Of a stretch of DNA of 64,000 bases, positions 42,630 to 59,243 are shown piece after piece. The DNA is from a virus. How positions within the stretch are numbered: the stretch's first letter is position 1; every line of letters begins with the position of its first letter. Location: IMG/VR virus record IMGVR_UViG_3300031419_000529, positions 1 through 64,000 of that record. One strand, 5' to 3'. Below the pieces are notes generated by a model. The model did not search any database and was not told the DNA's origin. It was given only the letters and a program-made list of their open reading frames with translations. Both the position numbers and the translations under genes were made by a program.

Positions 42630-43455
42630 CGATAGGCTCCAATTTACGGATAGCTTCGGTTTGAGCTTCTGAAAGGATGAATTTGGTGCTGACGGTCGCG
42701 ATCACGGCATCGGCTTTTTTACTGCCGGATTCGATCATCCTTTGCCAGCCAGGGAGGTTTTGATTGAATTTGTCAGCTGGGTAATGTGGCAACGTCAACG
42801 GCGTTTGGGTTTCTTTGTGGGGCGTCACATCCTTGGCGTCGCTGATATCCAAGGATTTACCTTCCATTTCTTCAGCCGTAGGCTGCTGGCCGATTTCGGG
42901 CCATGCTTTGCGTAGTGCCTGCGCTTCGGCGCATTTCGCTAGCTGGCCATAAGGGCGTTTCTTCCACATAGCGTTCGGCGCGGAGCTATCACGGCCAGCA
43001 GTCGCGTAATTCTCCATCCAGTATTCTTTGGCGCTGAATTCGACGATCTTGCCGTCGGGCATACTCTTGCAAACGGTGTACTTGCACCAGGCGGGAAAGG
43101 TGATTTCAACGCCATTTAGCGTTTTTGTAATGTCGTCACCAAATTCAGGCTCATTTGCACCCGCATAGCTCCCTGAGCGATCGGCCTGAATGCGATAAAG
43201 GCCGATGCCGGGCATCACTACGTCGCGCCATTCGTTTTTGCCTGATTGGGCATCTTTAACGCTCATCGGTACCAAGTGAACCGGCTTCATCAGCGGATCC
43301 AACTGACGAGCGATGCAATAGCTGACAGCCATGACAACAGAGTCATCCCGCGCGCCGGGATAAATGGAGTTTTTCAGCGCGTTCCAGGTAGGCTCATCGA
43401 TCCCCATGGCCGCGACAGATTGTGGCAAAGTGCCTGTTGTTACCATGTTGCTCAT
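42616..43455 (-). CDS. bet: Single-strand annealing recombinase Bet
   Basis: LDPLMKPVHLVP, GIGLYRIQA, WKKRPYGQLAKCAEAQALRKAWP. Confidence 0.92.
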   Translation of the reverse strand: MSNMVTTGTLPQSVAAMGIDEPTWNALKNSIYPGARDDSVVMAVSYCIARQLDPLMKPVHLVPMSVKDAQSGKNEWRDVVMPGIGLYRIQADRSGSYAGANEPEFGDDITKTLNGVEITFPAWCKYTVCKSMPDGKIVEFSAKEYWMENYATAGRDSSAPNAMWKKRPYGQLAKCAEAQALRKAWPEIGQQPTAEEMEGKSLDISDAKDVTPHKETQTPLTLPHYPADKFNQNLPGWQRMIESGSKKADAVIATVSTKFILSEAQTEAIRKLEPIDANH

Positions 43456-43610
43456 TGGTCAGCCCTCACGGAGTTACGGATAGATAAGCGGAAAACGCTG
43501 AGAACGACGGCGCAGGCTTTCAACGGATGGCGGCGGTGCTTGAATTGGTGAATATTGTGGCTGCCGATCCGGTGTTGGTACTGGATCTGTTGGATAGGGT
43601 TATGGCTCAT
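43452..43610 (-). CDS. 52-aa hypothetical protein MSHNPIQQIQYQHRIG... (not in ORF track)
   Basis: RBS GGAG; stop overlaps the bet ATG (ATGA). Confidence 0.55.
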   Translation of the reverse strand: MSHNPIQQIQYQHRIGSHNIHQFKHRRHPLKACAVVLSVFRLSIRNSVRADQ

Positions 43611-43671
43611 GGTATTCTCCGTGTTGATCGGGGGTGGTTCCCCGGTCAGCTAGCTGGTGGCCTTTGGTCAT
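43600..43671 (-). CDS. 23-aa mini-ORF MTKGHQLADRGTTPDQHGEYHEP
   Basis: Preceded by TAAGGACTGGCCA (variant of the shared RBS motif); overlaps the next start. Confidence 0.45.
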   Translation of the reverse strand: MTKGHQLADRGTTPDQHGEYHEP

Positions 43672-43750
43672 TGGCCAGTCCTTATGATTTGCGGTTTGGT
43701 CGCCGCATTTCGGGATAGCCCCGCTTGCGGGGCTTTTCTCGTTTATGGGG

Positions 43751-44083
43751 TTAGTGAATTTCGTGCAGTTCCGGATCATGTGCTGCTTCCAGCTCCATCG
43801 CTCGTTCGGCTTTTGCGATCCGTGTAAGGATTTCGGTTTGCACCGAGTAAAGGTATTCCTCCATATCAGGCGACTCGGTCAGTGCGACAAGAGGGCGCTT
43901 GTCTAACCCCGCGATGTGGCAGCGTTCCGCAATCAGCTTTTGAAACACTGATACCCGCAGGCTTTTCCGCATCCCTTCAATACGCGCATCGAGCAGCGTT
44001 TTTTCATCAGGATCCGCCGCTAGCGTGCGGTCATACTGCTCTAGCGTCTCCTCAACCATCCGCTGATAGTTATAGTCATGCAT
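43751..44083 (-). CDS. Phage hypothetical protein
   Basis: 110 aa; hairpin terminator at 43717-43737. Confidence 0.75.
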   Translation of the reverse strand: MHDYNYQRMVEETLEQYDRTLAADPDEKTLLDARIEGMRKSLRVSVFQKLIAERCHIAGLDKRPLVALTESPDMEEYLYSVQTEILTRIAKAERAMELEAAHDPELHEIH

Positions 44084-44216
44084 TTATTTACCTAACTTAT
44101 AATGTTAATTGATATAAATTTAAGTGATACTATTTGCATTAAGGATTTGTTTTCTAGGTGAAAAAACAAATAATGGATGTATAATAAAGAAATTAATATT
44201 TTAAAGTGATGAAATA

Positions 44217-45596
44217 ATGGACGAGTTAAATATATTAAATAATCTTAATAAATTGCGCAGACTTATTTCTGATATAGAGTCTTCAAATGTAGGTAGTAAG
44301 AATGACTTGCACTTCGAGGCTAGAGAAAATGTAAAGCAATTGTTAGAGGGGAATGTTTTTATTATTCGTGGAGCTTTATCCTCTCTCGAATCTAGTAATA
44401 AAAGAGTTCTCAAGAATTCTGAGATTGAAGATGTCAAACACACTTTATCGTTTGTGAGTAAAATTTGCTCAGATATTAACGATTTAAATGCAAAAAGTCC
44501 TTTGTACATAGCCGCTGTAAGAAATAACTTAACTAAAATGGATGAGTTATTAGAGCAAATAAAGCCTATTGTTAGGTTTTTTGTTACAACAGGCAGTGGG
44601 CTAAATGATAGTAGTGCAATGGTCGAGCGAGTTAAAAATACACTAAAAGATGCATCAATTCTCCATCATACAATGACGGTAAAACTAGCAAAATTAGATG
44701 AGAAAATAGATTCAGCCTCTAAAATAATTGGTGCTTCTTCGGCTAAGTTTGAAAAAATATCAAAAAACTTAGATAACCTTGAAGAATCTAATAGCAAATA
44801 TCAAAAAACAATCTCATTATTGGATTTAGAGTCTGATTTGATTTCTGAAAGGAAAAGTGAGTTAACTGCAGCATATGAACTTCTTTCTAGTGTAAAAAAA
44901 ACATATAGTGAAAATAACGAAACTTTAAAAACTATAGGTGACAACCTATCAAGTTTAGAGAGTAGTGTTAGTGACATAGAGTCTAGGGCGACAAATGCTA
45001 AAAACGATCTTGATAGTAAAACAAGTGAAATTGACTCTATAATTGCACAGGCAGCAGCTGCTTTAGAAACGACAACTACTGTATCGGTTGGGACTTTCTT
45101 CAAAGAGCAGTATGACATTTCTAAAAACCGCATGTTTATTTGGCCATCTTTTGCACTTGCATTCTTAATTGGGGCAATATGGATTTGCTATGATACCTTA
45201 AGCGATATTCGTCATGGGGTTGTTGATGGTGGAGCTGAACTGCCTTATATAATTGCAAGGTTTTGTATTGCGCCATTATTCTTATTAGGTGTTTGGTTCT
45301 GTACTAATCAGTATATTAAACAAAAAAATATAACTGAAGATTACGCATATAAGAAAGTTTTATCTTTATCATTAATTGGCTTCAAGTCCGAGATACAGAA
45401 AACTGGCGAGGCCAATACGACAGGATTTATAAAATCACTACTAAAAGAAATCCTTCGCTCTCCTTTGGAAACTTTAGATAAAAAGCATTACAAGAGAGAG
45501 ACAAAACTATTAAAATTAGCGCATGATGAGATGATTTCCAATATGTTTAAAAAAGTGTCTCCGCAAAAGACCGAAGTTGACGAAGAAAAAAAGTAA
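44217..45596 (+). CDS. AT-rich coiled-coil protein with two C-terminal TM helices (moron, candidate defence)
   Basis: ~300-aa heptad region, two TMs, EDYAYKK tail; antisense to the pL operon; bidirectional terminator at 45616-45646. Confidence 0.85.
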   Translation: MDELNILNNLNKLRRLISDIESSNVGSKNDLHFEARENVKQLLEGNVFIIRGALSSLESSNKRVLKNSEIEDVKHTLSFVSKICSDINDLNAKSPLYIAAVRNNLTKMDELLEQIKPIVRFFVTTGSGLNDSSAMVERVKNTLKDASILHHTMTVKLAKLDEKIDSASKIIGASSAKFEKISKNLDNLEESNSKYQKTISLLDLESDLISERKSELTAAYELLSSVKKTYSENNETLKTIGDNLSSLESSVSDIESRATNAKNDLDSKTSEIDSIIAQAAAALETTTTVSVGTFFKEQYDISKNRMFIWPSFALAFLIGAIWICYDTLSDIRHGVVDGGAELPYIIARFCIAPLFLLGVWFCTNQYIKQKNITEDYAYKKVLSLSLIGFKSEIQKTGEANTTGFIKSLLKEILRSPLETLDKKHYKRETKLLKLAHDEMISNMFKKVSPQKTEVDEEKK

Positions 45597-45658
45597 CTTA
45601 ATACTTTTTATCATAAAAAAAGCCACAGCATTGAGCTGTGGCTTTTCTATTAGTGTAA

Positions 45659-45922
45659 TCAAAAGACCCCATGGGGTACGCGGCTGCAACCGCGCATTTT
45701 CTGGCGGCCGGCGGCGCTGATTTGCCCTGGTGCAAGAAGTTCGCTCTCAACCGTGCGGCGTTTGCGTGGCTTCGGTGGTGCTGGCATATCCGGCATCGTT
45801 TTACAGCGGGTGATCACCAACGTTGTTTTTTCGATACGGTCGCTGCTGCGTTGGATACGCTCTTGAAGTTCACGAGCGCGGCGGAGTGTTGCTGATTTTG
45901 CTTTTGCTGTAATCATGGTCAT
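45659..45922 (-). CDS. N-like antitermination protein (Arg-rich)
   Basis: SATLRRARELQERI Arg-rich motif; early position in the pL operon; boxA upstream. Confidence 0.55.
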   Translation of the reverse strand: MTMITAKAKSATLRRARELQERIQRSSDRIEKTTLVITRCKTMPDMPAPPKPRKRRTVESELLAPGQISAAGRQKMRGCSRVPHGVF

Positions 45923-46060
45923 TGGTCAGTCCTCGGGTGGTACTTTGTGTCGTGAGCATTTTGGTTATTAATGCTTTTTGAATGATTAGGTTACCTGCTT
46001 TTTTCCACATCAGGCGAGGTGGTATCTTGGTGTTTCCACACAACCAAGAAGGCAAAACAG

Positions 46061-46339
46061 ATGGCATCTTTTACTGTTCGTGTTGAACTGAAGAATTCTG
46101 ATTGGGATACGTACAATAAACTCCATGAAAAAATGAGGTTGTCCGGCTACTCGCGCCAGATTAGGGCGGACACAGGAGTTATCTATCAGTTGCCTGATGC
46201 GGAGTATGTGGCAGAAAAAACACTTACGGTTGTGCAAGTTCACGGGGAGGTAAAAGCTATAGCGTCATCTCTCAATAGCGATCCTCATGTGTTTGTCACG
46301 GAAGCTGTTCGTTGGTACTGGAACTTAGATCGAGCCTGA
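46061..46339 (+). CDS. GhoS/DUF2622-like (Cas2-fold) putative endoribonuclease
   Basis: FTVRVEL...YNKLHEKM..GYSRQI...YQLPDAEY. Confidence 0.75.
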   Translation: MASFTVRVELKNSDWDTYNKLHEKMRLSGYSRQIRADTGVIYQLPDAEYVAEKTLTVVQVHGEVKAIASSLNSDPHVFVTEAVRWYWNLDRA

Positions 46340-46528
46340 TGCACCGTTGGTTTCGTTTACAGCGTTATCGTTAGGAAGTTCGACTATGCAAAGCATCAAA
46401 CCATCTTGATTCATCCGCTTATTCAACTGTTGGAAAACGAAGTTAGGGTTATTTTCCAACAGTTGTCTTAACTGCCGTTTATCTTCTTCCGTAGGTTTTT
46501 GGCGAGCAGTCTTCTCTGATTCATTCAT
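46325..46528 (-). CDS. Hypothetical protein, first gene of the pL operon
   Basis: RBS GAGGA, 67 aa. Confidence 0.6.
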   Translation of the reverse strand: MNESEKTARQKPTEEDKRQLRQLLENNPNFVFQQLNKRMNQDGLMLCIVELPNDNAVNETNGASGSI

Positions 46529-46679
46529 AGCAGTTCCTCGTTTAGTGGTCTTAGTCCTGCCGCCCCGAAATGGCAGCGGCAGGGTAAAAACACTACAGGC
46601 TTAGCGATCAGTGGACATCATCCGACTGAGTTGCGCCGCGACGGGTGCTGGGTACCCTGTGTTGCTGTCGCTACCTGTT

Positions 46680-46690
46680 TGTTAAAGAGC
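46680..46690 (-). promoter_or_regulatory. boxA of a nutL-like site
   Basis: GCTCTTTAACA on the - strand just downstream of pL. Confidence 0.75.
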
Positions 46691-46711
46691 AATCCCGGTT
46701 GGGATGGCTTT

Positions 46712-46765
46712 AATGTAAGTTTTTCTACAATGAGCGGTCAAGTGATTTTTGTAAGTTTTTCTACT
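46712..46765 (-). promoter_or_regulatory. pL promoter with OL operators
   Basis: TTGACC-N18-TACATT; TGTAAGTTTTTCTAC repeated at 46714 and 46750. Confidence 0.75.
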
Positions 46766-46798
46766 TTTCAGGGCGTGTGAGATCTGAAGGTGGGATGA

Positions 46799-47116
46799 TT
46801 AGTTGTGGGAGAACAAGAGATAGGCCACGCTACTAAAACCAATTGCTGTTACAAAATAGTGAGATTTGTCAATAACAAAGCTCTTTGTGGAGGGACTGAG
46901 TTTTATGAAAGTGGACAAAAATGGGAAGAGTACGAGAGTAATTACAGCACCTACAAATATTGACCATGCAAACATGAAGCCGCCAGTTACAAGATCATGA
47001 AAAATCCCCTTATTTTCTTCCGAGGCAATAATACAGAGTATTACATAGTAGGTAATGTAAATATATTTAATTTTATTAGTGTTTTTTATATTATTTATCT
47101 TAGAGTTCATCTTCAC
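46799..47116 (-). CDS. Three-TM membrane protein downstream of cI
   Basis: Hydrophobic segments; overlaps the upstream gene. Confidence 0.7.
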   Translation of the reverse strand: MKMNSKINNIKNTNKIKYIYITYYVILCIIASEENKGIFHDLVTGGFMFAWSIFVGAVITLVLFPFLSTFIKLSPSTKSFVIDKSHYFVTAIGFSSVAYLLFSHN

Positions 47117-47495
47117 AAAGCGCCTTGAGCAAGTTAGGAGTCACACTGTTATTAATTCTTTTATTAGCAGATAAATAACCTATTATTTGACCTTGCTTAA
47201 TAATCATGGGAGGGTTACTGGAATAAGCATTGAAAGGTGAATATTGGCTGTATTCACTTCCAAAGGTGCCGTATTCATTCCAAATGGAGCTTGAGCTATA
47301 TTGACTTCCATATGTGCCATATTCATTAAAAATAGAGTCGGAATCGTAGCTATTTGTCACATTACCCAGTTTGGTGTTTTGAGGGTCCTGCGCGATCAGT
47401 ACTGCACCGCTTACAACATTGCATAGCTGATTTGCACCGAGTGATGGGAGCGCAAGAGAAAATAAGGCGACCCCAAGGAAATTTCTTACCATCAC
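47100..47495 (-). CDS. Exported protein with NxYGxxGSxYS repeats, downstream of cI
   Basis: Signal peptide; SIFNEYGTYGSQYS / SIWNEYGTFGSEYS. Confidence 0.8.
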   Translation of the reverse strand: MMVRNFLGVALFSLALPSLGANQLCNVVSGAVLIAQDPQNTKLGNVTNSYDSDSIFNEYGTYGSQYSSSSIWNEYGTFGSEYSQYSPFNAYSSNPPMIIKQGQIIGYLSANKRINNSVTPNLLKALCEDEL

Positions 47496-47500
47496 AAATC

Positions 47501-48175
47501 CTATATTGGTTTTATATGACAGATTACAGTTCCAATTATACGACAGTTACTATCAAATTTAACAAACCTCATTTCTTGAGGGTAGTCAGGGTTTGTTGCC
47601 TTTAGATACCCAATGTTGTCTATTAATTGAAATTGCTTAAGTCCAACATTATTAGATGTATTAAATGCTGATATAATATACTGCCCGTTCATTGGAGTGC
47701 GAAGTGCTTCATCAACAAAGACTGTGTCGCCCATCTCAAATCGCGGAAGCATGGAATCATCATTAATCTCTATCGAAAAAGTATTGTTGCTGCAAGGGAC
47801 TGGGCAAGGAATATGTTTATCACTTCCTGAGGAAGAAACGGTAGCGCTTTTCGAGTTAACAATAGTTTGCCAAGTTACATAGGGGACAAGTCGAAGGTCT
47901 ACCTTGTCACTGAGGGGGGAAGAGCTAATGGCCTTTTCCTCGATAGAACCAACATTGTTTACCAACCACTCCGCAGAGCACTTGAGCACTTGAATTACTG
48001 CCAATAGCACTTTGTCCTTCATGCTTTCTTGGCTGCCATTTTCGATGTTGCTGATCGTTACGCGCGTGAGTTTCCGCTCGCCTTGCAGCAAGCGATTTAT
48101 CTCTTTTACGGCCTCCTCTTGAGTCAGACCAAGCTGCTCACGGCGCCATCTAAAACGTTCACCGAGTGTTTTCAT
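47501..48175 (-). CDS. cI: CI-like repressor (HTH + S24 domain)
   Basis: N-terminal XRE HTH; DSM and LKQ catalytic motifs; divergent from cro. Confidence 0.9.
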   Translation of the reverse strand: MKTLGERFRWRREQLGLTQEEAVKEINRLLQGERKLTRVTISNIENGSQESMKDKVLLAVIQVLKCSAEWLVNNVGSIEEKAISSSPLSDKVDLRLVPYVTWQTIVNSKSATVSSSGSDKHIPCPVPCSNNTFSIEINDDSMLPRFEMGDTVFVDEALRTPMNGQYIISAFNTSNNVGLKQFQLIDNIGYLKATNPDYPQEMRFVKFDSNCRIIGTVICHIKPI

Positions 48176-48223
48176 ACGTATACGATACGGAAAACTAACG
48201 TAGGTTTCATGACGTCAATTTTC

Positions 48224-48252
48224 TTGCTATAAAATGTAGAATAACTTACATT
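48224..48252 (+). promoter_or_regulatory. pR promoter with OR operator
   Basis: TTGCTA-N17-TACATT; TGTAGAATAACTTACA (48235-48250) matches the OL repeats in inverted orientation. Confidence 0.75.
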
Positions 48253-48270
48253 TCGAGATTGGAGGTGCCT

Positions 48271-48510
48271 ATGACTACGACAGGCAAGACGCTGTATCAG
48301 ATCCTGAAAGAAAAGTACGGGAATGACAATGGCATCGCGAAGGCGTTCAGTGTTGAACGACCAACTGTTTTTACCTGGCGGAAAACCACGCCAGAAAAAA
48401 TCGCTTTGCTTTGCCATATTTCCCCCGAAATCCCATACACCTACAACCCAGCGGACTACGGCCGCAACCCTGAGAATTTAAGCCTGGTTCTGACCAAACC
48501 AGCCTGTTAG
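48271..48510 (+). CDS. cro: Cro-like protein
   Basis: GIAKAFSVERPTVFTW HTH; RBS GGAGG before ATG 48271. Confidence 0.75.
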   Translation: MTTTGKTLYQILKEKYGNDNGIAKAFSVERPTVFTWRKTTPEKIALLCHISPEIPYTYNPADYGRNPENLSLVLTKPAC

Positions 48511-48530
48511 CAACGCATAAGGACTGACCA

Positions 48531-48893
48531 ATGACCACAATTTACCAGCCAGGCAATGGAACGGCAGGGGCCGCGATAGCCTCCGGCGTTCGCCGTGAGC
48601 TGCTGTCACGCAAGAAGGTAGGCAAAAACGGCCTACCATTCGCTGCTGTACGCGAAGACCAGATCAAAACGCGATGGACTGAGAGCGAGGCAGTGACGAT
48701 CAAAAGTGCTGCCGATGCCATGGCGTCCAACCCCGCAGTTGAAACCAACGTCGCCGCGATCCGGGGCTTTCTGGCTATGTTCGCTGAAGCCCCTGAGATG
48801 TTGGTTCACGTCCACAACGAACTGAAGGCCGCCGGCCTGTCTGTTCCTGAATGGCTGCCACCACTTCCATCAACAAAGGAGCTGCCACTATGA
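48531..48893 (+). CDS. Regulatory protein in the CII position
   Basis: Position after cro; carries the shared RBS motif. Confidence 0.65.
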   Translation: MTTIYQPGNGTAGAAIASGVRRELLSRKKVGKNGLPFAAVREDQIKTRWTESEAVTIKSAADAMASNPAVETNVAAIRGFLAMFAEAPEMLVHVHNELKAAGLSVPEWLPPLPSTKELPL

Positions 48894-49072
48894 GCCAGCA
48901 ATCAACCACCCAATCCGTAGAACTGATATCCAGCCTCATTGGTAAGAAGCTGGGTATCGCTGGGCATGAAGCCCGGCGTTTGGCTATCACAGGGATACTG
49001 TCAGGGGTAACGCAGGCGTACTACTCACGGGAAAGTGACAAACATGGGGCCTCTGCTTCGAGGTCTGAGTAA
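48890..49072 (+). CDS. Hypothetical protein
   Basis: RBS AAGGAG; ATGA/TAATG overlaps. Confidence 0.7.
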   Translation: MSQQSTTQSVELISSLIGKKLGIAGHEARRLAITGILSGVTQAYYSRESDKHGASASRSE

Positions 49073-50124
49073 TGGCAATTGTCAGAACCAACCGCCAGCG
49101 TGGATTCACCATGATCGACAATGCGGCTATCGGCAATAAAACGCTGAGCTGGGCGGCTGAAGGAATGCTGCATTATCTGCTGTCCAAGCCTGATGGCTGG
49201 TCAGTCAATCCGTCACACCTGTGGCAGGAGAAGAAGGGCGTTCGCGGCTGCGGCCGTGATGCCGTTTACAAGCTGCTGAACGAACTGATCCAGGTCGGTT
49301 TTATTCATCGTTTCCAACTGCGCGATGCCAAGGGTGTGACCGATGGTTTCGATTATTTCGTCTTCGACACGCCGCAACCGCATCCTGAAATTCAGGAAGT
49401 GGATGAACCCCAAGCGCCGCAAGGCTTGGCTCCGAATCCTGAAAATCAGGAAATGGACGAACCACCGTATCCTGAAAATCCGTATCCTGAAATTCAGGGC
49501 ATTAGTAAAGACGGATCTGTAGTAAATACTGATCTCTCTCTCTTAGGCGATGCTCAAAATTCAGCCGGTGATGAAACACCGCTAAACCCACACCTGAATG
49601 CCATTTTGAATAACCGCCCACCGGCGCCACAACCTGCACCGCAATTCGGCATGTTCCCGATGTCGTTCGACTGGGTACCTGGTGACGACTTTGCGCAAAT
49701 CGCGCACCTGTCCGGTTTGACCGCGGCGGAATTCACTCCTGAGCTACTGAACGAGTTCCGGATCTTCTGGAAGCCGACAGGCCGGGTGTATTACCACTCC
49801 CAGTGGCAGCAAAAATTTATCAGCTCACTAAAACACGAGCAATTGCGAGGGCAACGCTATGCGCGACCGCAACGGGCCGAAGCCGGTAACGGCGGCGGCA
49901 ATGCAACGGATCGCTTCCAGCAGGGCGTCGCCGCAATACGAGCCGTACAGGAAAAATACGGCTACGGCGGCGGAACAGAAGACGATTCAGGGGATTGTCT
50001 TGACGGTGATTTTGCCCATGTATCCGATCCACTGGCCAACGTGGGTCAGTCGAATGAATACGACGGTACTGATGGAGGCATTTGGAACGGAACTGACGCG
50101 GGTTCTGTTGCAGGACGCAATTAA
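49072..50124 (+). CDS. Replication initiator (O-analogue) with DnaT-like domain
   Basis: FTMIDN...YLLSKPDGW wHTH; internal iterons; FPMSFDW...EFRIFW. Confidence 0.85.
   Translation: MAIVRTNRQRGFTMIDNAAIGNKTLSWAAEGMLHYLLSKPDGWSVNPSHLWQEKKGVRGCGRDAVYKLLNELIQVGFIHRFQLRDAKGVTDGFDYFVFDTPQPHPEIQEVDEPQAPQGLAPNPENQEMDEPPYPENPYPEIQGISKDGSVVNTDLSLLGDAQNSAGDETPLNPHLNAILNNRPPAPQPAPQFGMFPMSFDWVPGDDFAQIAHLSGLTAAEFTPELLNEFRIFWKPTGRVYYHSQWQQKFISSLKHEQLRGQRYARPQRAEAGNGGGNATDRFQQGVAAIRAVQEKYGYGGGTEDDSGDCLDGDFAHVSDPLANVGQSNEYDGTDGGIWNGTDAGSVAGRN
49383..49499. repeat. Replication origin iterons
   Basis: TCCTGAAA(T/A)TC-type 15-mers at 49383, 49437, 49470, 49485; two are perfect TCCTGA-N3-TCAGGA palindromes. 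Confidence 0.8.
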
Positions 50125-50614
50125 CCCGGAACAGCTGAACTACGCCATCAGGGCGGCACCGGGACGCAAGTTTTATCCGTTCCCTGCGCCACCGGACTGG
50201 CTGTCCATGGCGAAAGAGCTGATCGACGCCAGACTGCCGACAGTGGATAGCGTGATGGAGGAGTTTGACCGTTACAGCGCAAGACGGGGCTATTTCGACA
50301 GCCCTGAAGAGTTCAGATGGAAAGCGCCGATCTTGTACTGGATTGTCACCGATATGCGCAAGGCTATGCAGCAGTACAACCATGGCGTTGCTGAGCTGCG
50401 AAAAGTGGCAGAGCGGCTGCTCCGTCAGTGGGAAAAGAAACTACAGGATGGGGAGCAAATCCCGGAACCAGCAATCAGGCTGGGTTACACGGAAACGCCG
50501 ATAGGTGTTGGAAAAGAACGGGGATTGACCACCCCCGAAACAGAGAAAAAAGGCGCGGCGCTTCTTCAGGCAATTCGGCTGAAGGTGGCCCTAGCAAAAA
50601 CAAGTAAGGACTGA
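49859..50614 (+). CDS. Replication protein P-like (helicase loader); start uncertain
   Basis: PFPAPPDW, LPTVDSVMEEFDRY, LYWIVTDMR; follows the initiator. Confidence 0.75.
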   Translation: MRDRNGPKPVTAAAMQRIASSRASPQYEPYRKNTATAAEQKTIQGIVLTVILPMYPIHWPTWVSRMNTTVLMEAFGTELTRVLLQDAINPEQLNYAIRAAPGRKFYPFPAPPDWLSMAKELIDARLPTVDSVMEEFDRYSARRGYFDSPEEFRWKAPILYWIVTDMRKAMQQYNHGVAELRKVAERLLRQWEKKLQDGEQIPEPAIRLGYTETPIGVGKERGLTTPETEKKGAALLQAIRLKVALAKTSKD

Positions 50615-50617
50615 CCA

Positions 50618-51760
50618 ATGACCATTTGTATCAAAAACGCACTGATTTACCGCTTGTCCCGAGGTGTGGATCTGAGCGGGATGGAAGAGCAACTGGCTGC
50701 ATTTGCGTTCACGCCATGCGGTAGCCAGGACATGGCAAAAACCGGATGGGTGGCACCAATTGGCGATGCGCTCGTGCACACCGCCAACGGCCAGCATCTG
50801 CTGGTGGTACAGCGCGAAGAGAAACTGCTCCCGCGTGAAGTTATTCAAACCGAGCTGAACGAGAAAGTCGCCAAACTTGAAGCCGAACAGCATCGGAAAC
50901 TGAAAAAATCAGAGAAAGACGCTCTCAAAGACGAAGTGCTGCATAGCCTGCTGCCGCGTGCTTTCAGCAAACACCATAAAACACAGATCTGGATTAACGA
51001 AGGGGCCGGGTTAATCGTCGTTGACGCCGCCAGTGCCAAACGCGCCGAAGATGCGCTGGCGTTACTGCGCAAAAGCTTGGGTTCCCTCCCAGTGGTGCCG
51101 TTGGCCATGGAAAGCCCGATCGAGCTGACCGTGACCGAATGGGTACGCTCTGGCCAGCCGCCAGCGGGCTTTACTCTGCAAGATGAGGCCGAGTTGAAAG
51201 CGGTTTTGGAAGAGGGCGGGATCATCCGTTGCAAGAAGCAGGATCTGGTCGGTGATGAAATCGCGTCAAACCTGCAGGCGGGTAAGTTGGTCACGAAGTT
51301 GGCGCTGAGTTGGCAGGATCGAATTGATTTCGTGCTGAGCGATGACGGCACGCTGAAGAAACTGAAATTTAGCGATGTGCTGCTGGAGCAGAACGACGAT
51401 ATTGATCGGGAGGATTACGCCCAACGCTTTGACGCGGACTTTATTCTGCTGACCGGCGAGCTGGCGGCGTTGATTGCCAACCTGGTTGCAGCGCTCGGCG
51501 GGGAAGCGAGCCATTCTGCCAATAGCAGCGGTTCAACGGCTAATGAGGATGACGATTCGCTGAATGATGAACGTTATCCTGAAGCTGTCCAGTTTGTTCT
51601 GGCCAAGGGCAGCGCTTCGATTTCAGGCCTGCAGCGTCAATTCCGCATTGGCTATAACCGCGCTGCGCGGCTGATAGAGCAGATGGAGGCTGGTGGCGTG
51701 CTGTCGGAGCCCGGTGTCGATGGCACACGGACAGTGCTGAGTACAGGGGCCGAGCAATGA
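50618..51760 (+). CDS. rdgC: RdgC with C-terminal FtsK-gamma winged helix
   Basis: [22 protein letters not shown]; [24 protein letters not shown]. Confidence 0.92.
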
Positions 51761-52104
51761 TGCAGAAACCTCAAACCTCCGAAAAGGAGCGTAGTTGCAT
51801 CAACGAGGGGATCCGCAAGCTGCGTAAGGCGGGCCGGTTCGATGAAGCAAATACTCAAATGAACCGGGTTATCACGGCAGCCAGCGGTGCTGATTGGCAT
51901 TCACTGCGCGATCTGGAAAACCTGCTGGCGCAAATGTTCCCTGATGAGGGCGATACCCAGACGGCGATCAGCGCGCGTCTACGTGAAATCTCTCCGATCC
52001 TGCATGGCCTGGTGAAGCAGGTAAGCAAAGTCCGCAACGAAGAATCAGGAAAAACCACCTGGTTCTATCGTCTTGTGCCTTCTCATCAGGAGGCGCGCCT
52101 GTGA
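51757..52104 (+). CDS. Phage hypothetical protein (wHTH-like)
   Basis: [12 protein letters not shown]; coupled to neighbours. Confidence 0.75.
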
Positions 52105-52766
52105 TCGACTTTTCAAACACGCCTTATGTTCAGGCGCTGGCGGCGCAAAAACTGGCCCCGACACACGAGCTTAAGGAAATTGGTGACCAGTGGCGCACGC
52201 CGGATCCGTTGTTCTGGGGGATCAATGGCATGTTCGGGCCATTTGTGTTGGATCTTTTCAGTGACGGCGAAAACAGCAAGTGCGCGGCGTTCTATACAGC
52301 CGAAGATAACGCGTTGGTTCAGGACTGGTCAGCGCGTCTGAAAGATCTGAACGGCGCCGCGTTTGCCAATCCGCCATACAGCACAGCGAAGCAGCATGAG
52401 GGTGAATATATCACTGGCATGCGGCACATCATGCGCCATACGAAGGATATGCGGGAGTTCGGCGGGCGTTATGTGTTTCTCATCAAATCGGCGACAGCGG
52501 AAGTATGGTGGCCGGAGGATGCGGATCACGTTGCGTTTATTCGTGGCCGTATTGGTTTTGACGTGCCGCTTTGGTACCGGCCGGCGGATGAAAAACAAGA
52601 GGCCACCAGTGCCGGTTTCGGCGCGGCTATCGCTCTGTTCGATAAAACATGGCGCGGCCCGGTTTCAAGTTATGTCAGCCGTGACCGGCTAACTGCCCAA
52701 GGTGATGCTTTCATGGCACAAATTCGCAGGGAAGCTGAGCGATTGTCGGTGAGGAGTGTCGTGTGA
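52101..52766 (+). CDS. Phage DNA N6-adenine methyltransferase (Dam-like)
   Basis: DQWRTP, NPPYS, FIRGRIGF. Confidence 0.92.
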   Translation: MIDFSNTPYVQALAAQKLAPTHELKEIGDQWRTPDPLFWGINGMFGPFVLDLFSDGENSKCAAFYTAEDNALVQDWSARLKDLNGAAFANPPYSTAKQHEGEYITGMRHIMRHTKDMREFGGRYVFLIKSATAEVWWPEDADHVAFIRGRIGFDVPLWYRPADEKQEATSAGFGAAIALFDKTWRGPVSSYVSRDRLTAQGDAFMAQIRREAERLSVRSVV

Positions 52767-53413
52767 CGGCTACTACCCGGACTAAATCTTCGCGTAAGCA
52801 CAAGACGGAAGCATTAGGTGTATTGCTACCAGGTGGTGGTATCAAATATGCGACAGATCACGACAGGGACACGATGAAAGGGGTGCCTACGGGCACTCCT
52901 ATCGCCATGCGTCCGATCGGCGACCGCAGGAACCTGAAGCATCACCGCAAATTCTGGAAGCTGCTGGAGTTGGGTTTTTCGTATTGGGAGCCAGATTGGA
53001 CGTTCGTTAGCGATCCGGAGAAGTGGATTGCGCATGAGGTGGCGAAGACACTGGCGATACAGGCTGGCGATCCGCTGCTTTATGACAACATCACAAAGCT
53101 GATCGCCGACAGTGTGCTGCAGCGTGTTGCGGCACAACGGCAGCGCCGCTTTGACGCCGAAGCTGTGAAAACGACGGAGGCTTATCTCAATCACGTCATG
53201 GTTAAAGCCGGTTTCTATGATCTAGCCGCTAACCCGGACGGCGGAACGTTGAAGCAGCGTTGGAGCATCGCTTTCGTCAACATGAGCCAGGAGAAGTTCG
53301 ACAAGGTTTATAGCGGCGTCGCCGGCGTCATCTGGAATGAGACACTGCAGCAACACTTTGCCGATGAGTTTGAGATGGAACAGGCCGTTAATCGGCTGAT
53401 TGAGTATGCTTAG
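52763..53413 (+). CDS. DUF1367-family protein
   Basis: RNLKHHRKFWKLLELGFSYWEP; SIAFVNMSQEKF. Confidence 0.85.
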   Translation: MTATTRTKSSRKHKTEALGVLLPGGGIKYATDHDRDTMKGVPTGTPIAMRPIGDRRNLKHHRKFWKLLELGFSYWEPDWTFVSDPEKWIAHEVAKTLAIQAGDPLLYDNITKLIADSVLQRVAAQRQRRFDAEAVKTTEAYLNHVMVKAGFYDLAANPDGGTLKQRWSIAFVNMSQEKFDKVYSGVAGVIWNETLQQHFADEFEMEQAVNRLIEYA

Positions 53414-53467
53414 CTGAGTATTTTCATTATAATTTCAACCACACTAACTTAAATAGAGCTGTTAAAA

Positions 53468-54490
53468 ATGCTTGATGTTCTTTCCTCAGGAAAAATCACT
53501 ATTGATCTTCAGTTAATCGCTATCATTGTTGGAGTGGTAGTCACGCTGGCTGCATTTTATTTTCGTAAGGGACTATCAAAGGTTGAATTATTTGTTTCGA
53601 GTAATGAAGTTACCTCTGAGGTTGACGTAAAATCACTTCAAAGAAAGCTCGATGAATTGGTAACCATTGTTGAAGGGGCGAAGGACGATGGCATCGTAGG
53701 GTTATCTGAAAGTGTCCAAAAGCTTAGGGCAAGAGTGTCAGAGCTTGAATTGCCAGGTCTTGATGTTAATTATAAAGAAAGAATCGAAGGTGATATTCAG
53801 TCTATAGTTGATTCTCTCTTGGAAAATAATCTTGAAAATAATGATGAAATAAACAACAAAATAACCAATGTTATCGATGGAATGATAAGTGAGAAGGTGG
53901 CTCTCAATGTTGCCGAAAAGGATAAGATTGCACTTGAAAAAGACAAAAACTTGATCTCTTTGATGCTTAATTCTAAAGATGATTTCGATTCGTTATTACG
54001 GCGCGAGTATGATTACTCATTGAGGTATAAAGGTGTTGTTTTGAATTTATTTATAATAATAAATATTGGGTTGTTGTTTATTGCGTTATTATATACTCTT
54101 TCGATTGCTTTATCCACTTCAGTGATAAATAACGGATTCCCAAGGGAACTGGCGCTGACCATTTCAGGTCTATATATTGGATTTGCGTCCTTTGTTATAT
54201 ATGTAATAAAATTTTCAAATGCAAGAATTCTTACGATAATTGCATTGAGGGAGGATATGTCAAAAGAGAATGTTCTATCTCATTATGTAGATGCCTTTTC
54301 AAACAAACCAGAATTGAATGAAAATGATGTAGCAGTAATGAGAGTGTTAACAGTAAATCGCGCACAAAGAGAACAGAAAACAAATCACCCATATGAAGTA
54401 ATACTCCAGGGTATTAGTGGCTCAAATATCCAGTTTAAAGGCGGAAGACTGCAAGTGGGCAAAGATAACAACAAGAGTGATCGGGATTAA
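53468..54490 (+). CDS. AT-rich membrane protein (TM - coiled coil - 2 TM)
   Basis: Hydrophobicity pattern; inserted between DUF1367 and DUF1364. Confidence 0.85.
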   Translation: MLDVLSSGKITIDLQLIAIIVGVVVTLAAFYFRKGLSKVELFVSSNEVTSEVDVKSLQRKLDELVTIVEGAKDDGIVGLSESVQKLRARVSELELPGLDVNYKERIEGDIQSIVDSLLENNLENNDEINNKITNVIDGMISEKVALNVAEKDKIALEKDKNLISLMLNSKDDFDSLLRREYDYSLRYKGVVLNLFIIINIGLLFIALLYTLSIALSTSVINNGFPRELALTISGLYIGFASFVIYVIKFSNARILTIIALREDMSKENVLSHYVDAFSNKPELNENDVAVMRVLTVNRAQREQKTNHPYEVILQGISGSNIQFKGGRLQVGKDNNKSDRD

Positions 54491-54795
54491 TGCGAGCGTA
54501 CCGAAGCAAGGCTCTGCGCGATTCGGCGCGGGGCCGCTGCTGCACATTGCAGATCCCAGGAATCTGTAATGGGAACCCAGAAACAACGGTTCTATGCCAT
54601 CTTCCCAGCAGCACCCAAGGCATGGGGTATAAGAGCGATGATTTTTGGGCGGTGTTTGGATGTTCCTGTTGTCATGATGTGATTGATGCGAGAAAATCGT
54701 ATGATTGGGAAAACGGCGAAAAAGAAGAGCTGCTAATTAATGCTCTTTATTTGACATATAAATATTGGCATTCACTGTCATTATTTAATTATTAA
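54490..54795 (+). CDS. DUF1364/YbcO-family putative nuclease
   Basis: SARGRCCTLQIPGICNGNPETTVLCH, CSCCHD. Confidence 0.85.
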   Translation: MRAYRSKALRDSARGRCCTLQIPGICNGNPETTVLCHLPSSTQGMGYKSDDFWAVFGCSCCHDVIDARKSYDWENGEKEELLINALYLTYKYWHSLSLFNY

Positions 54796-54825
54796 TAGTT
54801 AATACGTGAATTATTAGGAGATGTA

Positions 54826-56097
54826 GTGACTTCGTACACAGACGATTTTGTTAAGAAAAATATTGATGAGTGTGACTCGTTTATTCAAATAAAATATAAA
54901 GAGTCTGTATTTAATATACAAGGAGATAATGAACTAAACGATAGGGAATTTATTTCCAGCCTAAGTTATGATGAGGTTTTTCAAGTGGCTCTTTATTGCG
55001 CCTGGTTGGATTTTTTCTCTAAGTTTAGAAATGACGCAGTTCTCCTTGACAAAAACACAATTTTTAACAGAAAGAAACTAGGCGATAGAGTTTTATTTTC
55101 CGCAGATCAAGTAAAGGATGATCCTGTCTTATTCTTGTCAAACTTATTAAGGGTAATAATAGAAGCTAATTTTTGGGAGGGCTCACCTGGTCTTTTTTAT
55201 AATAGACGTGATGTTTTGACGATCTTAGCAAGTAATTACGAGAGAAGGGAGTATCAATTCGAATGGATAAGAGATACTTTGCAGATTTCATTAGCACAGT
55301 TCTTACTACATTCCGATGCTTTTAAAATGGCATTGCAACTTGGTTCCAATATAACTGAGCAGTCTAATACTATAAAGAATGAGTTAAATAAAGATGTGGG
55401 AATACTAATTGGAACTCTAACTTCAGAAAGTGAAAGTATAAAGAAAGATTTCGATACAAAAAAAGAAGAGATTTCAGAGTTATTAAACGATAAAGAGAAA
55501 GAGTTACGCAATATTTTTGAAGAGATAGACTCTAATGTTAAAGGGATAGATGAGGTTAGAGAAAGATTAAGTAGTTACCATTCTGAATTTAACTTTGTAG
55601 GTCTTTATGCTGGGTTCAAAGAATTAAAGAAAGGTAAAGATGAAGAGCTAGACTCGGCAAAAGGCAGTTATCATCTCGCCATGATTATTGCAATAATGTT
55701 ACCGTTGTTAAGTATAGGGATGCATATATTATTCCCTGGGCTGGTGAATGGAAAAACTTTAGTTGAATGGGTGTCGTGGGCAGCTCCGTTCGCTGCAATA
55801 GAACTTCTTATACTATATTATGCAAGGGTAATTTATTCAGAAGTTAAGTCGTTGAGAACGCAACTTGTACAAATAAATTTAAGAGGGGCGTTATGCCAAT
55901 TCATAGAAGAATATATGAATTATAGAAAGAAAATGAAAAATGAAAAAGGTGAGCTGAATGATGCAGCGTTGGATAAATTTGATTCATTAATCTTCAGTAC
56001 AATACAAATGGATAGCGATAACATTCCTGGGGCTCTGGATGGAGTTAATGCTATTGCTGAGTTGGCGGGAAAAGTTTTAGCAAAAAGTAAGCCTTAG
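54826..56097 (+). CDS. AT-rich coiled-coil/two-TM protein (candidate defence effector)
   Basis: Globular N-terminus, heptads, 2 TMs, LCQFIEEY...KFDSLIFS tail. Confidence 0.85.
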   Translation: MTSYTDDFVKKNIDECDSFIQIKYKESVFNIQGDNELNDREFISSLSYDEVFQVALYCAWLDFFSKFRNDAVLLDKNTIFNRKKLGDRVLFSADQVKDDPVLFLSNLLRVIIEANFWEGSPGLFYNRRDVLTILASNYERREYQFEWIRDTLQISLAQFLLHSDAFKMALQLGSNITEQSNTIKNELNKDVGILIGTLTSESESIKKDFDTKKEEISELLNDKEKELRNIFEEIDSNVKGIDEVRERLSSYHSEFNFVGLYAGFKELKKGKDEELDSAKGSYHLAMIIAIMLPLLSIGMHILFPGLVNGKTLVEWVSWAAPFAAIELLILYYARVIYSEVKSLRTQLVQINLRGALCQFIEEYMNYRKKMKNEKGELNDAALDKFDSLIFSTIQMDSDNIPGALDGVNAIAELAGKVLAKSKP

Positions 56098-56165
56098 ATA
56101 TAATGAAAATTATGTAGTTTAGATTGTTATTTAATTTATGATAATTTTGATTAACAGGGGGTATA

Positions 56166-57701
56166 ATGAAAAATATAGTGGAAATGTCTTTTGAATGGCA
56201 GAACGAGAGTAATGGATTTCCAGCGGATAATCTGGATCGGGCCAAATATGCTAGATTCTTAACGGATTTCTTGGTTGCTAAAGGCAGTGAAAAAAATTAT
56301 GTTTTGAATGTAAATGCTTCATGGGGCGCTGGGAAAACATGGTTTTTGAGACGTTGGTCTGAAGAGATTAAAAAGAATTATCCTGTGGTATTTGTTGATG
56401 CATGGAAAAGTGACCATTCAAAAGATCCTTTTTTGTCTGTTGTATCTGCAATTTCTAAAGATCTAGAGCCATTAATAGATGTGAGATTTAAAGATAGCGC
56501 AATAACGAAAAAAAGCTGGCTATTATTAAAAAGTATAGCCCCCGAAATTACAAAAGGAATTGTGAAAAAATATTTGAGCTTAGATATTGATGAGGTATCA
56601 AAAGCAATTAATAATAATGATGCATCCTCCATTGCTGGTGTGGGCGCCAAAGCAGTTGAGAAATTAATTAAGTTTCATGATGAAACTAATAGTTCCATTG
56701 ATGACTTCAAAGAAGCTACATCAAAATATTTGGATTTAATTGTCAATAAATCAGATAAAGAGTTACCTCTGTTTGTTTTCATAGATGAATTAGACAGGTG
56801 CAGGCCAACTTATGCAATAGAAATGCTTGAAACAATAAAGCATATATTTGATATGGAGAACGTGGTTTTTGTTATTGCTACTGATAAAGATCAGCTGCAA
56901 CACTCAATAAAAGCTGTATATGGAAGTGGATTTAACTCAACAAAATATTTGGATCGTTTTTTTGATAGATCAGTTACTTTGAGAAAAACCTCGCTCTTTG
57001 ACTACATAAGTAACATGATTTCAAATAGTAATATTTTAACCGATTATTTTAGCAGGTCAGATTGTAGTTGGATGATACCAGTTAATAATTTGGATCAAAT
57101 TTCTGATAGGGTTGAATGGCTTTCAGCAATGTCACAATGTTTTTATATGGATTTAAGAACGACAAAACAATGGATTGAGCGATTGGAAGCATCAATATTA
57201 TCCTCGGGTGATCGTATTGATTTTATATTTCTTTCATATTTACTGGCATTAAATAGTGTTAATGGAATCACATATGCAAATGTTGCTAACACAACATCAA
57301 TTATGGGGGCTGACTTCAAAGGTAAATACATTTCTGAATTGTATCGTGACATTGTAAATCCAGATGTTAAACTGAATTTTTCTTTTGATTGCTCTGTTTT
57401 AGGTGATAAATTAAACATTAAAAACTCAAGTTCATACACCAGAAACCCATTTAAAATCGTAAATTTTTCGTTAGGTGTTCATGAGTTGTTTTTCAGTCTC
57501 CACTGTTGTGTGAATACAATCGACCCACAGAGGGTAATTGATGAGCAATGCTTTTCTTTATCTCAACGCTTAATGGAAGGTGGTCAAGATACAAGGATGA
57601 TTGATATAGGATTGATGCAAGCTGTCATAATGAGGAATAATAATGGGGTGAGTTTCCATGATTATATAGATATAGTAGAGCTAGCAATGATATTAGAATG
57701 A
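56166..57701 (+). CDS. KAP-family P-loop NTPase
   Basis: WGAGKT Walker A, DAWKSD, FIDELDRCRP, YLDRFF. Confidence 0.93.
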   Translation: MKNIVEMSFEWQNESNGFPADNLDRAKYARFLTDFLVAKGSEKNYVLNVNASWGAGKTWFLRRWSEEIKKNYPVVFVDAWKSDHSKDPFLSVVSAISKDLEPLIDVRFKDSAITKKSWLLLKSIAPEITKGIVKKYLSLDIDEVSKAINNNDASSIAGVGAKAVEKLIKFHDETNSSIDDFKEATSKYLDLIVNKSDKELPLFVFIDELDRCRPTYAIEMLETIKHIFDMENVVFVIATDKDQLQHSIKAVYGSGFNSTKYLDRFFDRSVTLRKTSLFDYISNMISNSNILTDYFSRSDCSWMIPVNNLDQISDRVEWLSAMSQCFYMDLRTTKQWIERLEASILSSGDRIDFIFLSYLLALNSVNGITYANVANTTSIMGADFKGKYISELYRDIVNPDVKLNFSFDCSVLGDKLNIKNSSSYTRNPFKIVNFSLGVHELFFSLHCCVNTIDPQRVIDEQCFSLSQRLMEGGQDTRMIDIGLMQAVIMRNNNGVSFHDYIDIVELAMILE

Positions 57702-57724
57702 GAAACATTAATAAGGACTGACCA

Positions 57725-58537
57725 ATGACCAACGTAATAGAACAACTTATAAAAATGCACGATCCGCGCTGTGTAAGCGCGGAGTCAATGAATGTAGGCC
57801 GCGGGCGAGCTTCCCTGACCAGGGAGCAAATTCTCGGAGCATTCGCAGCCGCGCAGCACCAGCACTCAGTTGGCCTCGACCTGCTGATGACTAAGTACCG
57901 CAGCGACTTCAAGGCGGAGCAGCGGCTACGTGCAGCGATCAATGAATGGGTACATCAACGCCCGCATCCCGAACGCGCGGCTGCTGCATGTCAGTTAGCC
58001 CTGAGTATTGTGCTTGAGCGTAACCTGCCGGCACAGATATCACACCTCGCGTCATTATTACGCAGGTATGGCCCACGTACTGCTCAAACCCGAAAGAACA
58101 TTGAGGCGCTGCAGTCAGAGATTAAGGCTTTAGACAAGCGCCGATGCCAGGTGCAAATCAGCGATACTGTTTACGTTGAGGCTGGATTAGAAATTACCGA
58201 TTTGAATACACGGATTGAGCGGGAACGTGCAGCATTGCGCGCCTGGTCTGAACGCCACGCAGCCACAACCAATATTTGCCCACGATGCTCAGGCACTGGC
58301 CGTACTGTTAGACCGCACCCGGTAGAGTGCGAAGAGTGTGGTGGTAAAGGTAAGATACCCGCCAATATGGAACACTTGCGTAACTCTATGCGTATCATAG
58401 GGGCCGAGGTAGCTCCCGGGAAGTGGGTTACTGAATATATCTCATTGGTTGGAGCTTGTATCAACTGGCTGTATTGTAAAGAGGAGCAAGCAGGTAAGTG
58501 CATAAAAAACAGGATTATAAGCGAATTATACGACTGA
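57725..58537 (+). CDS. Q-like late antiterminator with Zn finger
   Basis: CPRCSGTG...CEECGGKG; position before the late promoter and lysis genes. Confidence 0.75.
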   Translation: MTNVIEQLIKMHDPRCVSAESMNVGRGRASLTREQILGAFAAAQHQHSVGLDLLMTKYRSDFKAEQRLRAAINEWVHQRPHPERAAAACQLALSIVLERNLPAQISHLASLLRRYGPRTAQTRKNIEALQSEIKALDKRRCQVQISDTVYVEAGLEITDLNTRIERERAALRAWSERHAATTNICPRCSGTGRTVRPHPVECEECGGKGKIPANMEHLRNSMRIIGAEVAPGKWVTEYISLVGACINWLYCKEEQAGKCIKNRIISELYD

Positions 58538-59124: not shown

Positions 59125-59153
59125 TTGCTTATAGTTCTATAACGCGCTAAATT
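59125..59153 (+). promoter_or_regulatory. Late promoter pR' of prophage 2
   Basis: TTGCTT-N17-TAAATT; -10-like TATGCT at 59171. Confidence 0.65.
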
Positions 59154-59159
59154 TCCGAA

Positions 59160-59243
59160 AGATGCCGGAGTATGCTTAAAGCTACTTCGGCTTTTTTATT
59201 GGTCAGTCCTAAGCCTGCATGGTTCGCCCAGCAGGCTTTTTTT
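59160..59243 (+). ncRNA. Candidate ~85-nt antisense sRNA from the pR' leader
   Basis: Hairpin 59164-59191, unpaired TTATTGGTCAGTCCT 59196-59210, terminator 59211-59243; the seed is complementary to six RBS/start sites. Confidence 0.65.

Follow-up and report, generated by a model that had tools for sequence, protein, structure and literature searches.

A start-site block shared by early genes of a Serratia lambda-like prophage as a candidate target of two phage-encoded antisense RNAs

Why would unrelated early genes of one temperate phage begin with the same 17–20 nucleotides (nt)? This question is raised by the IMG/VR virus record IMGVR_UViG_3300031419_000529, positions 1 to 64,000 of which form the stretch of DNA analyzed here (64,000 nt; hereafter, the window, to which coordinates refer). 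It includes the early region of a lambda-like prophage, the host of which is Serratia, and the block common to the early gene starts consists of the Shine-Dalgarno sequence AGGA, a fixed 7-nt spacer CUGACCA, the AUG codon and then ACC. We propose, with a probability of about one half and on the strength of sequence comparison, that this block is the shared target of two phage-encoded anti-start-site RNAs, denoted A and L, that together would define a phage-internal post-transcriptional regulon. Pairing of either RNA would mask the Shine-Dalgarno sequence together with the start codon and thereby repress the early genes jointly, and the block would be kept constant as their common pairing site.

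A search for the 20-mer TAAGGACTGACCAATGACCA, allowing up to 3 mismatches on both strands, yielded six copies in the window and none in 100 dinucleotide shuffles, and all six are confined to the early region of this one prophage. When the 91-kb provirus record was searched whole, no further copies were detected, either in the upstream 40 kb with the upstream prophage or among the late genes, which agrees with the initial annotation, where no copy had been seen in the first prophage by eye. The three copies that the initial annotation described as the longest (48518, 50605 and 57712) are exact to the 20-mer. In every copy, the ATG opens an open reading frame (ORF), with ATG-ACC (Met-Thr) in five and ATG-AGC in recT, also as previously noted. 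The earlier count of six genes has to be corrected: judging from sequence, five copies are true translation starts, namely those of recT, the N-position gene, the cII-position gene, the rdgC-FtsKgamma fusion gene and the Q-like gene, and the sixth is the core of RNA A. The ORF behind this sixth copy (43665–43684, minus strand) has 23 codons here and 7–8 codons in two groups of relatives, and in the commonest group of relatives ATA stands in place of ATG; therefore, we do not consider it a gene start. The loss of ATG is a G>A change on the coding strand, and a G·U pair is still possible in the RNA sense. No conserved ORF was found on either strand of the RNA A core.

The products of three of these genes were assigned by family searches: RecT (Pfam PF03837, 2.5e-27; phrog_2449, 6e-125), RdgC fused to FtsK_gamma (Pfam, 8.5e-116 and 2.2e-23, respectively) and a Q-like protein (phrog_127, ‘Q-like’, 4e-9), distant homologs of which are encoded between RusA and holin in two sequenced phages. 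For the cII-position protein, no Pfam or PHROG family was found, and Atlas provided weak ribbon-helix-helix leads only.

To assess conservation, we used 46 related prophage records picked by Q homology alone (51–87% identity). A 13-mer of the block (at most 1 mismatch) is present in all 46, with a reversed-pattern control near zero, and the near-complete records carry 6–9 copies clustered in ~20 kb. Across IMG/VR, at least 119 stretches contain the exact 17-mer, many of them repeatedly. Three whole genomes of Serratia or Symbiopectobacterium have the exact 13-mer only inside one prophage cluster, so that there are no exact host targets in these three genomes. Clustering of the proteins encoded behind 224 distinct block instances gave ten recurrent families, all of them early genes: Q, cII-position, N-position, rdgC, phrog_2600, phrog_1621, recT, an 83-aa (amino acid) protein, KTSC and a P-type helicase loader. 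In the N-position family (MTKPRKKRR...) alone, 23 distinct instances of the block were counted. The many singletons found on unrelated GC-rich contigs resemble chance matches of the 17-mer.

The Q orthologs are the most informative with respect to selection. Pairwise identity is 93% in the 11-nt block, compared with 38% in the 20 nt upstream; the initial 84 bases of the coding sequence are 81% identical, and third codon positions 61%. About 41 of the 46 Q orthologs retain the block, with −1 to +2 nt of variation in its spacing to the ATG; because the block remains 93% identical while the spacing shifts, the conserved entity is the block itself rather than a mere Shine-Dalgarno sequence at the right spacing. 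On this comparative evidence, the block is under selection. Conservation of the motif at orthologous genes, one part of what the initial annotation had set as a test of its proposal, is what the relatives display.

The complement of the sixth copy lies in RNA A, a candidate gene at 43608–43740 on the plus strand, inside the leftward early operon (Table 1; fold z = −4.6). Among the related prophages, RNA A comes in four sequence variants, in which the stems vary compensatorily and the loops keep UUGGUC. In a model-based alignment of 44 copies (20 distinct), two-sided changes were observed in 9 of the 21 pairs, and 92% of the alignment cells were paired, compared with 37–53% when the partners were slid. 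Recurrent G·U pairs and the U tract place RNA A on the plus strand, antisense to the leftward operon. The RNA A model (R1) was found in 39 of the 46 related records and in 20 of the 21 near-complete ones. RNA A is probably an independent transcription unit for a structured non-coding RNA of ~120 nt, with promoter activity predicted. Furthermore, stem-loop 2 and the core of RNA A, when reverse-complemented, are collinear with the junction between cro and the cII-position gene, where a hairpin is followed by the motif, and R1 has a partial match at 48495–48552 (minus strand; model positions 43–104). This suggests an origin of RNA A through inverted duplication of that junction. On the opposite strand, the start codon of a 52-aa ORF (43452–43610, minus strand) overlaps the −10 region of RNA A; the N-terminal part of its product is alike in relatives (…QYRHR…), and the promoter and the ORF start may constrain each other.

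RNA L is the candidate leader of the late promoter (fold z = −5.6), and the holin-position ORF begins just past it. Its seed, complementary to AGGACUGACCAAU(GA), that is, to the Shine-Dalgarno sequence and AUG, spans 13–15 nt that are predicted to be exposed between two terminator hairpins. A 15-mer search of the window had returned one additional block copy, lacking an ATG, at 59195–59209 (minus strand). Both hairpins are G+C-rich and followed by a U tract, as predicted for terminators, and the few compensatory changes in this otherwise nearly invariant RNA affect both stems. The RNA L model (R2) has a strong match in 45 of the 46 related records, and the −10 region and downstream box are kept in 45 of 46. 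In one group of relatives, the seed is partly duplicated, and one variant has a C>U change in the seed that retains a G·U pair. The same genomes contain second copies of the late leader that keep the promoter and hairpin 1 and, in most cases, a second terminator, with a spacer that is unrelated or absent and carries no seed. Because these paralogous leaders dispense with the seed, it is not needed for the promoter, the Q-utilization site or the terminator.

One such second late promoter box (GCGCTAAATT...AAAGATGCCG) is located outside the window in the same record, at 74725–74794 (G000, L232:1500–1560), some 15 kb inside the late region; it has a single hairpin-terminator and lacks the seed. 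Relatives have this box too, often with a different second terminator, and it is possibly a second Q-dependent promoter. A weak match to the L model at 3299–3389 (minus strand; 16 bits, E 0.13) includes a TAAATT-type box and then a hairpin-terminator, without a motif complement, and is perhaps the late leader of the neighboring prophage.

We predicted duplexes of the L seed and the A core with the 337 ORF starts in the window. For both RNAs, the five motif-bearing starts occupy ranks 1–5 of 337, a ranking that follows from the complementarity itself and is not independent evidence. The predicted energies are −25 kcal/mol for the L seed (z = −5) and −35 to −48 kcal/mol for the A core, which complements 17–20 of 20 nt at the five starts and 19–20 nt of the block. 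Its strongest predicted duplex is with the cII-position start (−47.7 kcal/mol). At the recT start, the L seed is predicted to pair at −25.2 kcal/mol, and the A>G change of this diverged copy leaves pairing with the RNAs complete through a G·U wobble. Additionally, the hairpin loops of RNA A (UUGGUC) are complementary to GACCAA.

Table 1. Positions of the start-site block, of the two candidate RNAs and of associated features in the window
Feature	Position	Strand	Basis or remark
Motif copy, 3 mismatches (TGAGGGCTGACCAATGAGCA)	43449–43468	−	Start of recT (42616–43455)
Motif copy, 1 mismatch	43665–43684	−	Complement of RNA A core, no gene start
Motif copy, 2 mismatches	45916–45935	−	Start of basic 87-aa N-position gene (45659–45922)
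Motif copy, exact	48518–48537	+	Start of 120-aa cII-position gene (48531–48893)
Motif copy, exact	50605–50624	+	Start of rdgC-FtsK-gamma fusion gene (50618–51760)
Motif copy, exact	57712–57731	+	Start of Q-like antiterminator gene (57725–58537)
Candidate RNA A gene	43590–43745	+	Inside leftward early operon, antisense
RNA A promoter, TTGGAT-17-TG-n-TATTCT, extended −10	43590–43618	+	Predicted from sequence
RNA A stem-loop 1	43626–43647	+	Fold
RNA A core, motif complement	43665–43684	+	Complementarity
RNA A stem-loop 2, loop UUUGGUC	43690–43707	+	Fold
RNA A putative intrinsic terminator, then U tract	43717–43734	+	Also picked up by terminator scan
Candidate RNA L, leader of late promoter	59125–59243	+	Downstream of Q and a 164-aa ORF
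RNA L predicted promoter, TTGCTT-17-TAAATT, sigma70-type	59125–59153	+	Sequence
RNA L hairpin 1 and U tract (terminator 1)	59164–59197	+	Fold
RNA L seed, UUAUUGGUCAGUCCU	59196–59210	+	Complement of motif
RNA L terminator 2	59211–59243	+	Fold
CI-type repressor	47501–48175	−	Family searches
Hairpin at cro/cII-position junction (end of cro)	48484–48502	+	Loop CUGACCA, as in motif spacer

We infer transcription of A and L, their pairing in vivo, the repression and its timing. If L behaves like lambda 6S and StxS, the late promoter would yield it constitutively in lysogens, and pairing of A and L with the start sites would damp leaky expression of the early genes and Q in the lysogen. After Q acts, the seed would ride in the abundant leader of the late mRNA and could help to shut the early genes off. 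Because L would also target the start site of Q, a feedback loop between the two would result.

One complete record (G019) has the Q-L module, lacks A, and contains the motif only at Q, which suggests that there are two linked pairs, L belonging to the start site of Q and A to those of the remaining early genes. The L element was found in the chromosomes of Serratia sp. and S. quinivorans and in a Symbiopectobacterium metagenome-assembled genome (MAG). It is also present, with the seed, on a 17.9-kb contig (L138) labeled as a Nitrospirota MAG, probably a mis-binned enterobacterial prophage contig. A double-hairpin leader accompanies the distant Q homologs of Pasteurella phage Pmp11 and Aeromonas phage phiARM81mr, and these two leaders contain no complement of their own Q start site; for this reason, we regard L-Q pairing as an innovation specific to the Serratia lineage and not general to the Q family. 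An Rfam scan of 42–61 kb (E ≤ 1) retrieved nothing relevant, and megablast and blastn of the region, A and L against 50,697 phage records gave no match.

Several observations weigh against this regulon. In 2 of the 4 variant groups, a single central position of the RNA A core is mismatched with the consensus start site. The L seed starts in the U tract of the strong first terminator, and therefore seed-bearing L may be rare without read-through. One relative (L183) combines a perfect Q start site with a single-terminator leader that has no seed. Covariation between seed and target offers few informative cases, both being nearly invariant, and in the diverged lineage G033/G034 the Q start site and the L seed have both drifted with no obvious compensation. 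Wobble-preserving transitions in the motif copies outnumber disrupting ones by 16 to 8 (6 vs 4 sites), a non-significant difference among non-independent instances. Much of this pattern would also be expected if recombination made the repeated copies evolve in concert. Finally, four public RNA runs contained 5–8% of the sampled words, all in contigs of 85–95% relatives showing homology breaks only, and such contigs carry no information on expression, RNA ends or strand.

Recombination is the alternative that survives best, although we consider it unlikely to be the principal explanation. The block would then be a good portable ribosome-binding cassette, spread and kept uniform by recombination between gene modules as a linker or microhomology, and the complements in A and L would be by-products, for example, of an inverted duplication of the cro/cII-position junction. 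The collinearity of the RNA A complement with that junction suggests such an origin, and the phage encodes a RecT that could use 17–20 nt of identity. Among 100 homology end-points determined against six relatives, 8 fall within 25 nt of a motif ATG, compared with 1.65 expected. Contigs of other relatives break at 45933, 48540 and 57714/57725, and in relatives (L019, L082 and L085) the same upstream gene end continues across the block into unrelated downstream genes. However, the eight end-points all lie at the N-position gene (45933) or at Q (57710–57714), are non-independent and adjoin variable inserts, and any gene start next to a variable insert will resemble a junction. Most junctions are elsewhere and lack the motif (44084, 46722, 48400, 53407, 54505, ~58410 and ~59140), and in the six relatives only two of the five start sites coincide with junctions. 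A junction neither requires the block nor follows from its presence. Nor does recombination alone account for the absence of the block from the late genes and the neighboring prophage, for the promoter, terminator, covarying stems and invariant loops of A, or for the restriction of the seed to the Q-proximal late leader.

The microhomology alternative raised in the initial annotation thus has partial support, from two or three of the six sites: homology breaks at the N-position gene and at Q, one relative adds a break at the cII-position gene, and the excess of mosaic boundaries near the motif comes from the first two of these, the other junctions being free of it. The suggestion of a small-RNA regulon in that annotation appears, as far as sequence can tell, to be the best supported, given selection on the block, two candidate RNA genes that carry its complement in exposed positions and the top-ranking starts, with the amendment that the sixth copy is an RNA core.

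An AT-rich block (53468–57701) lies between the nin-type genes and Q, with a GC content of 0.33–0.43 over 53–58 kb. The Q copy abuts it, as previously noted: homology to the six relatives resumes at 57710–57714. All six relatives have other DNA in its place, with junctions at 53407 or 54505 and at 57710–57714, and the block behaves as a moron insert.

A bolder version of the regulon, which we consider doubtful, is an RNA-level switch with three parts: a commitment loop in the lytic decision, late shut-off of the early genes and, possibly, CI-independent cross-immunity. L would repress translation of Q, N, the cII-position gene, RecT and RdgC, and Q would alter the output of the late promoter, so that the loop could act as a threshold or commitment step in the lytic decision. 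The immunity regions differ between relatives in which the block is kept, so the cassette is common to heteroimmune relatives, and A and L of a resident prophage could silence superinfecting relatives.

It is improbable that the block is instead the RNA site of a protein, either a translational repressor or start-site nuclease, for which T4 RegA and RegB are the respective models, or an N-like protein; lambda N represses its own translation through nutL. All copies of the block have one orientation and one distance relative to the ATG. Where the boxB of nutR would be expected, the junction hairpin at 48484–48502 has an invariant CUGACCA loop and a compensatory stem change, relatives swapping CTGGTT/AACCAG for CTGGCT/AGCCAG. 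The motif copy begins 16 nt downstream of this hairpin, an arrangement that mirrors stem-loop 2 and the core of RNA A, and the hairpin could be either a boxB-like nutR element or a kissing partner of the UUGGUC loops of RNA A. A leftward transcript of the A region would also show two hairpins with GACCAA loops, but the G·U pairs put the conserved structure on the plus strand. Moreover, the block is not within a hairpin at the start sites, no RNA-binding family was detected among the ORFs scanned, several small ORFs being without any family, and a protein leaves the complementary L seed unexplained.

Two further candidates were set aside: a DNA-level operator, which is out given the fixed orientation and ATG distance and the position of copies inside operons, and extended pairing of the spacer with the 3′ end of 16S rRNA, unsupported beyond UAAGGA. 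The probability that the similarity reflects chance or ordinary Shine-Dalgarno and ATG conservation is practically negligible. Although every gene start would be expected to have AGGA and ATG, this reading is refuted by the shuffles, none of the 100 having a single match to the 20-mer, by the retention of the 7-nt spacer and the second codon in unrelated genes of 46 prophages, with the reversed-pattern control near zero, and by the identity of the block at Q orthologs.

Two observations concern individual genes. Directly 3′ of the N-position gene, in the expected place of tL1, there is a strong intrinsic terminator (AGCCACAGC...GCTGTGGCT followed by U7; 45615–45645, minus strand). In one group of relatives (L009:6588–8387, plus strand, etc.), the motif-preceded gene of the RecT family encodes 599 aa, with the RecT match in two stretches separated by a middle part that has weak ribonucleotide-reductase and thymidylate-synthase-like matches; it may contain an intein or other insertion.

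Temperate-phage decisions are the textbook case of protein- and antitermination-based control, and to our knowledge the RNA regulators described to date have either a single transcript as target (OOP, sar, c4) or chiefly host genes (StxS, PreS). If the proposed pairing is correct, the ribosome-binding regions of the key early genes share one pairing site throughout a whole prophage lineage, and the N-like, cII-position, Q and recombination genes would be controlled as a set by two dedicated RNAs. The unusually conserved spacer would be explained, and a lambda-type 6S/PR′ late leader, otherwise a by-product, would gain a clear phage-internal function. The arrangement would also offer a compact natural system in which coordinated translational control by a single seed acting on many start sites could be studied or engineered.

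These features can be compared with four kinds of known systems. The modular theory of lambdoid phage evolution invokes short conserved linkers at module boundaries, and the block resembles them in being an identical short sequence at gene boundaries on which some mosaic junctions fall; unlike linkers, it is limited to early genes and two RNA genes are complementary to it, neither of which would be predicted of a linker, and most junctions lie elsewhere. The phage antisense immunity RNAs include c4 of P1/P7, sar of P22 and OOP of lambda. Like these, RNA A is a small structured RNA that is encoded between a predicted promoter and terminator of its own in the early/immunity region of a temperate phage and is complementary to a ribosome-binding site; as in c4, loops present the complementary segments. 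It differs from all three in having at least five dispersed start sites as putative targets, rather than one transcript, and in its antisense position opposite a spacer between genes of the leftward recombination operon; an Rfam scan and blastn against phage records revealed no sequence relation to them. RNA A also resembles lambda LPR1/PreS as a phage small RNA of the leftward early operon. However, PreS is a sense-strand 3′ end at terminator tL2a that acts on host dnaN, whereas RNA A is antisense, has its own putative promoter and is predicted to act on phage start sites.

The closest counterparts of RNA L are the late-promoter leaders of lambda and Stx phages, which are made constitutively (PMC7547250). 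StxS is the terminated PR′ leader small RNA of Stx phages, a by-product of antitermination control that acts by Hfq-dependent base-pairing and represses the phage gene stx1B (PMC7547250), and lambda 6S RNA is Hfq-bound and present in lysogens (10.1101/2024.10.31.621285). RNA L shares with them the location just downstream of the Q gene, a sigma70-type promoter and intrinsic terminators; there is no sequence similarity, and 59.1–59.3 kb matched no Rfam family at E ≤ 1. The comparison is one of position and architecture, by which expression of L is predicted. Whereas StxS acts mainly on host rpoS and on stx1, the seed of L would target the phage's own early regulators, including Q, through their shared cassette.

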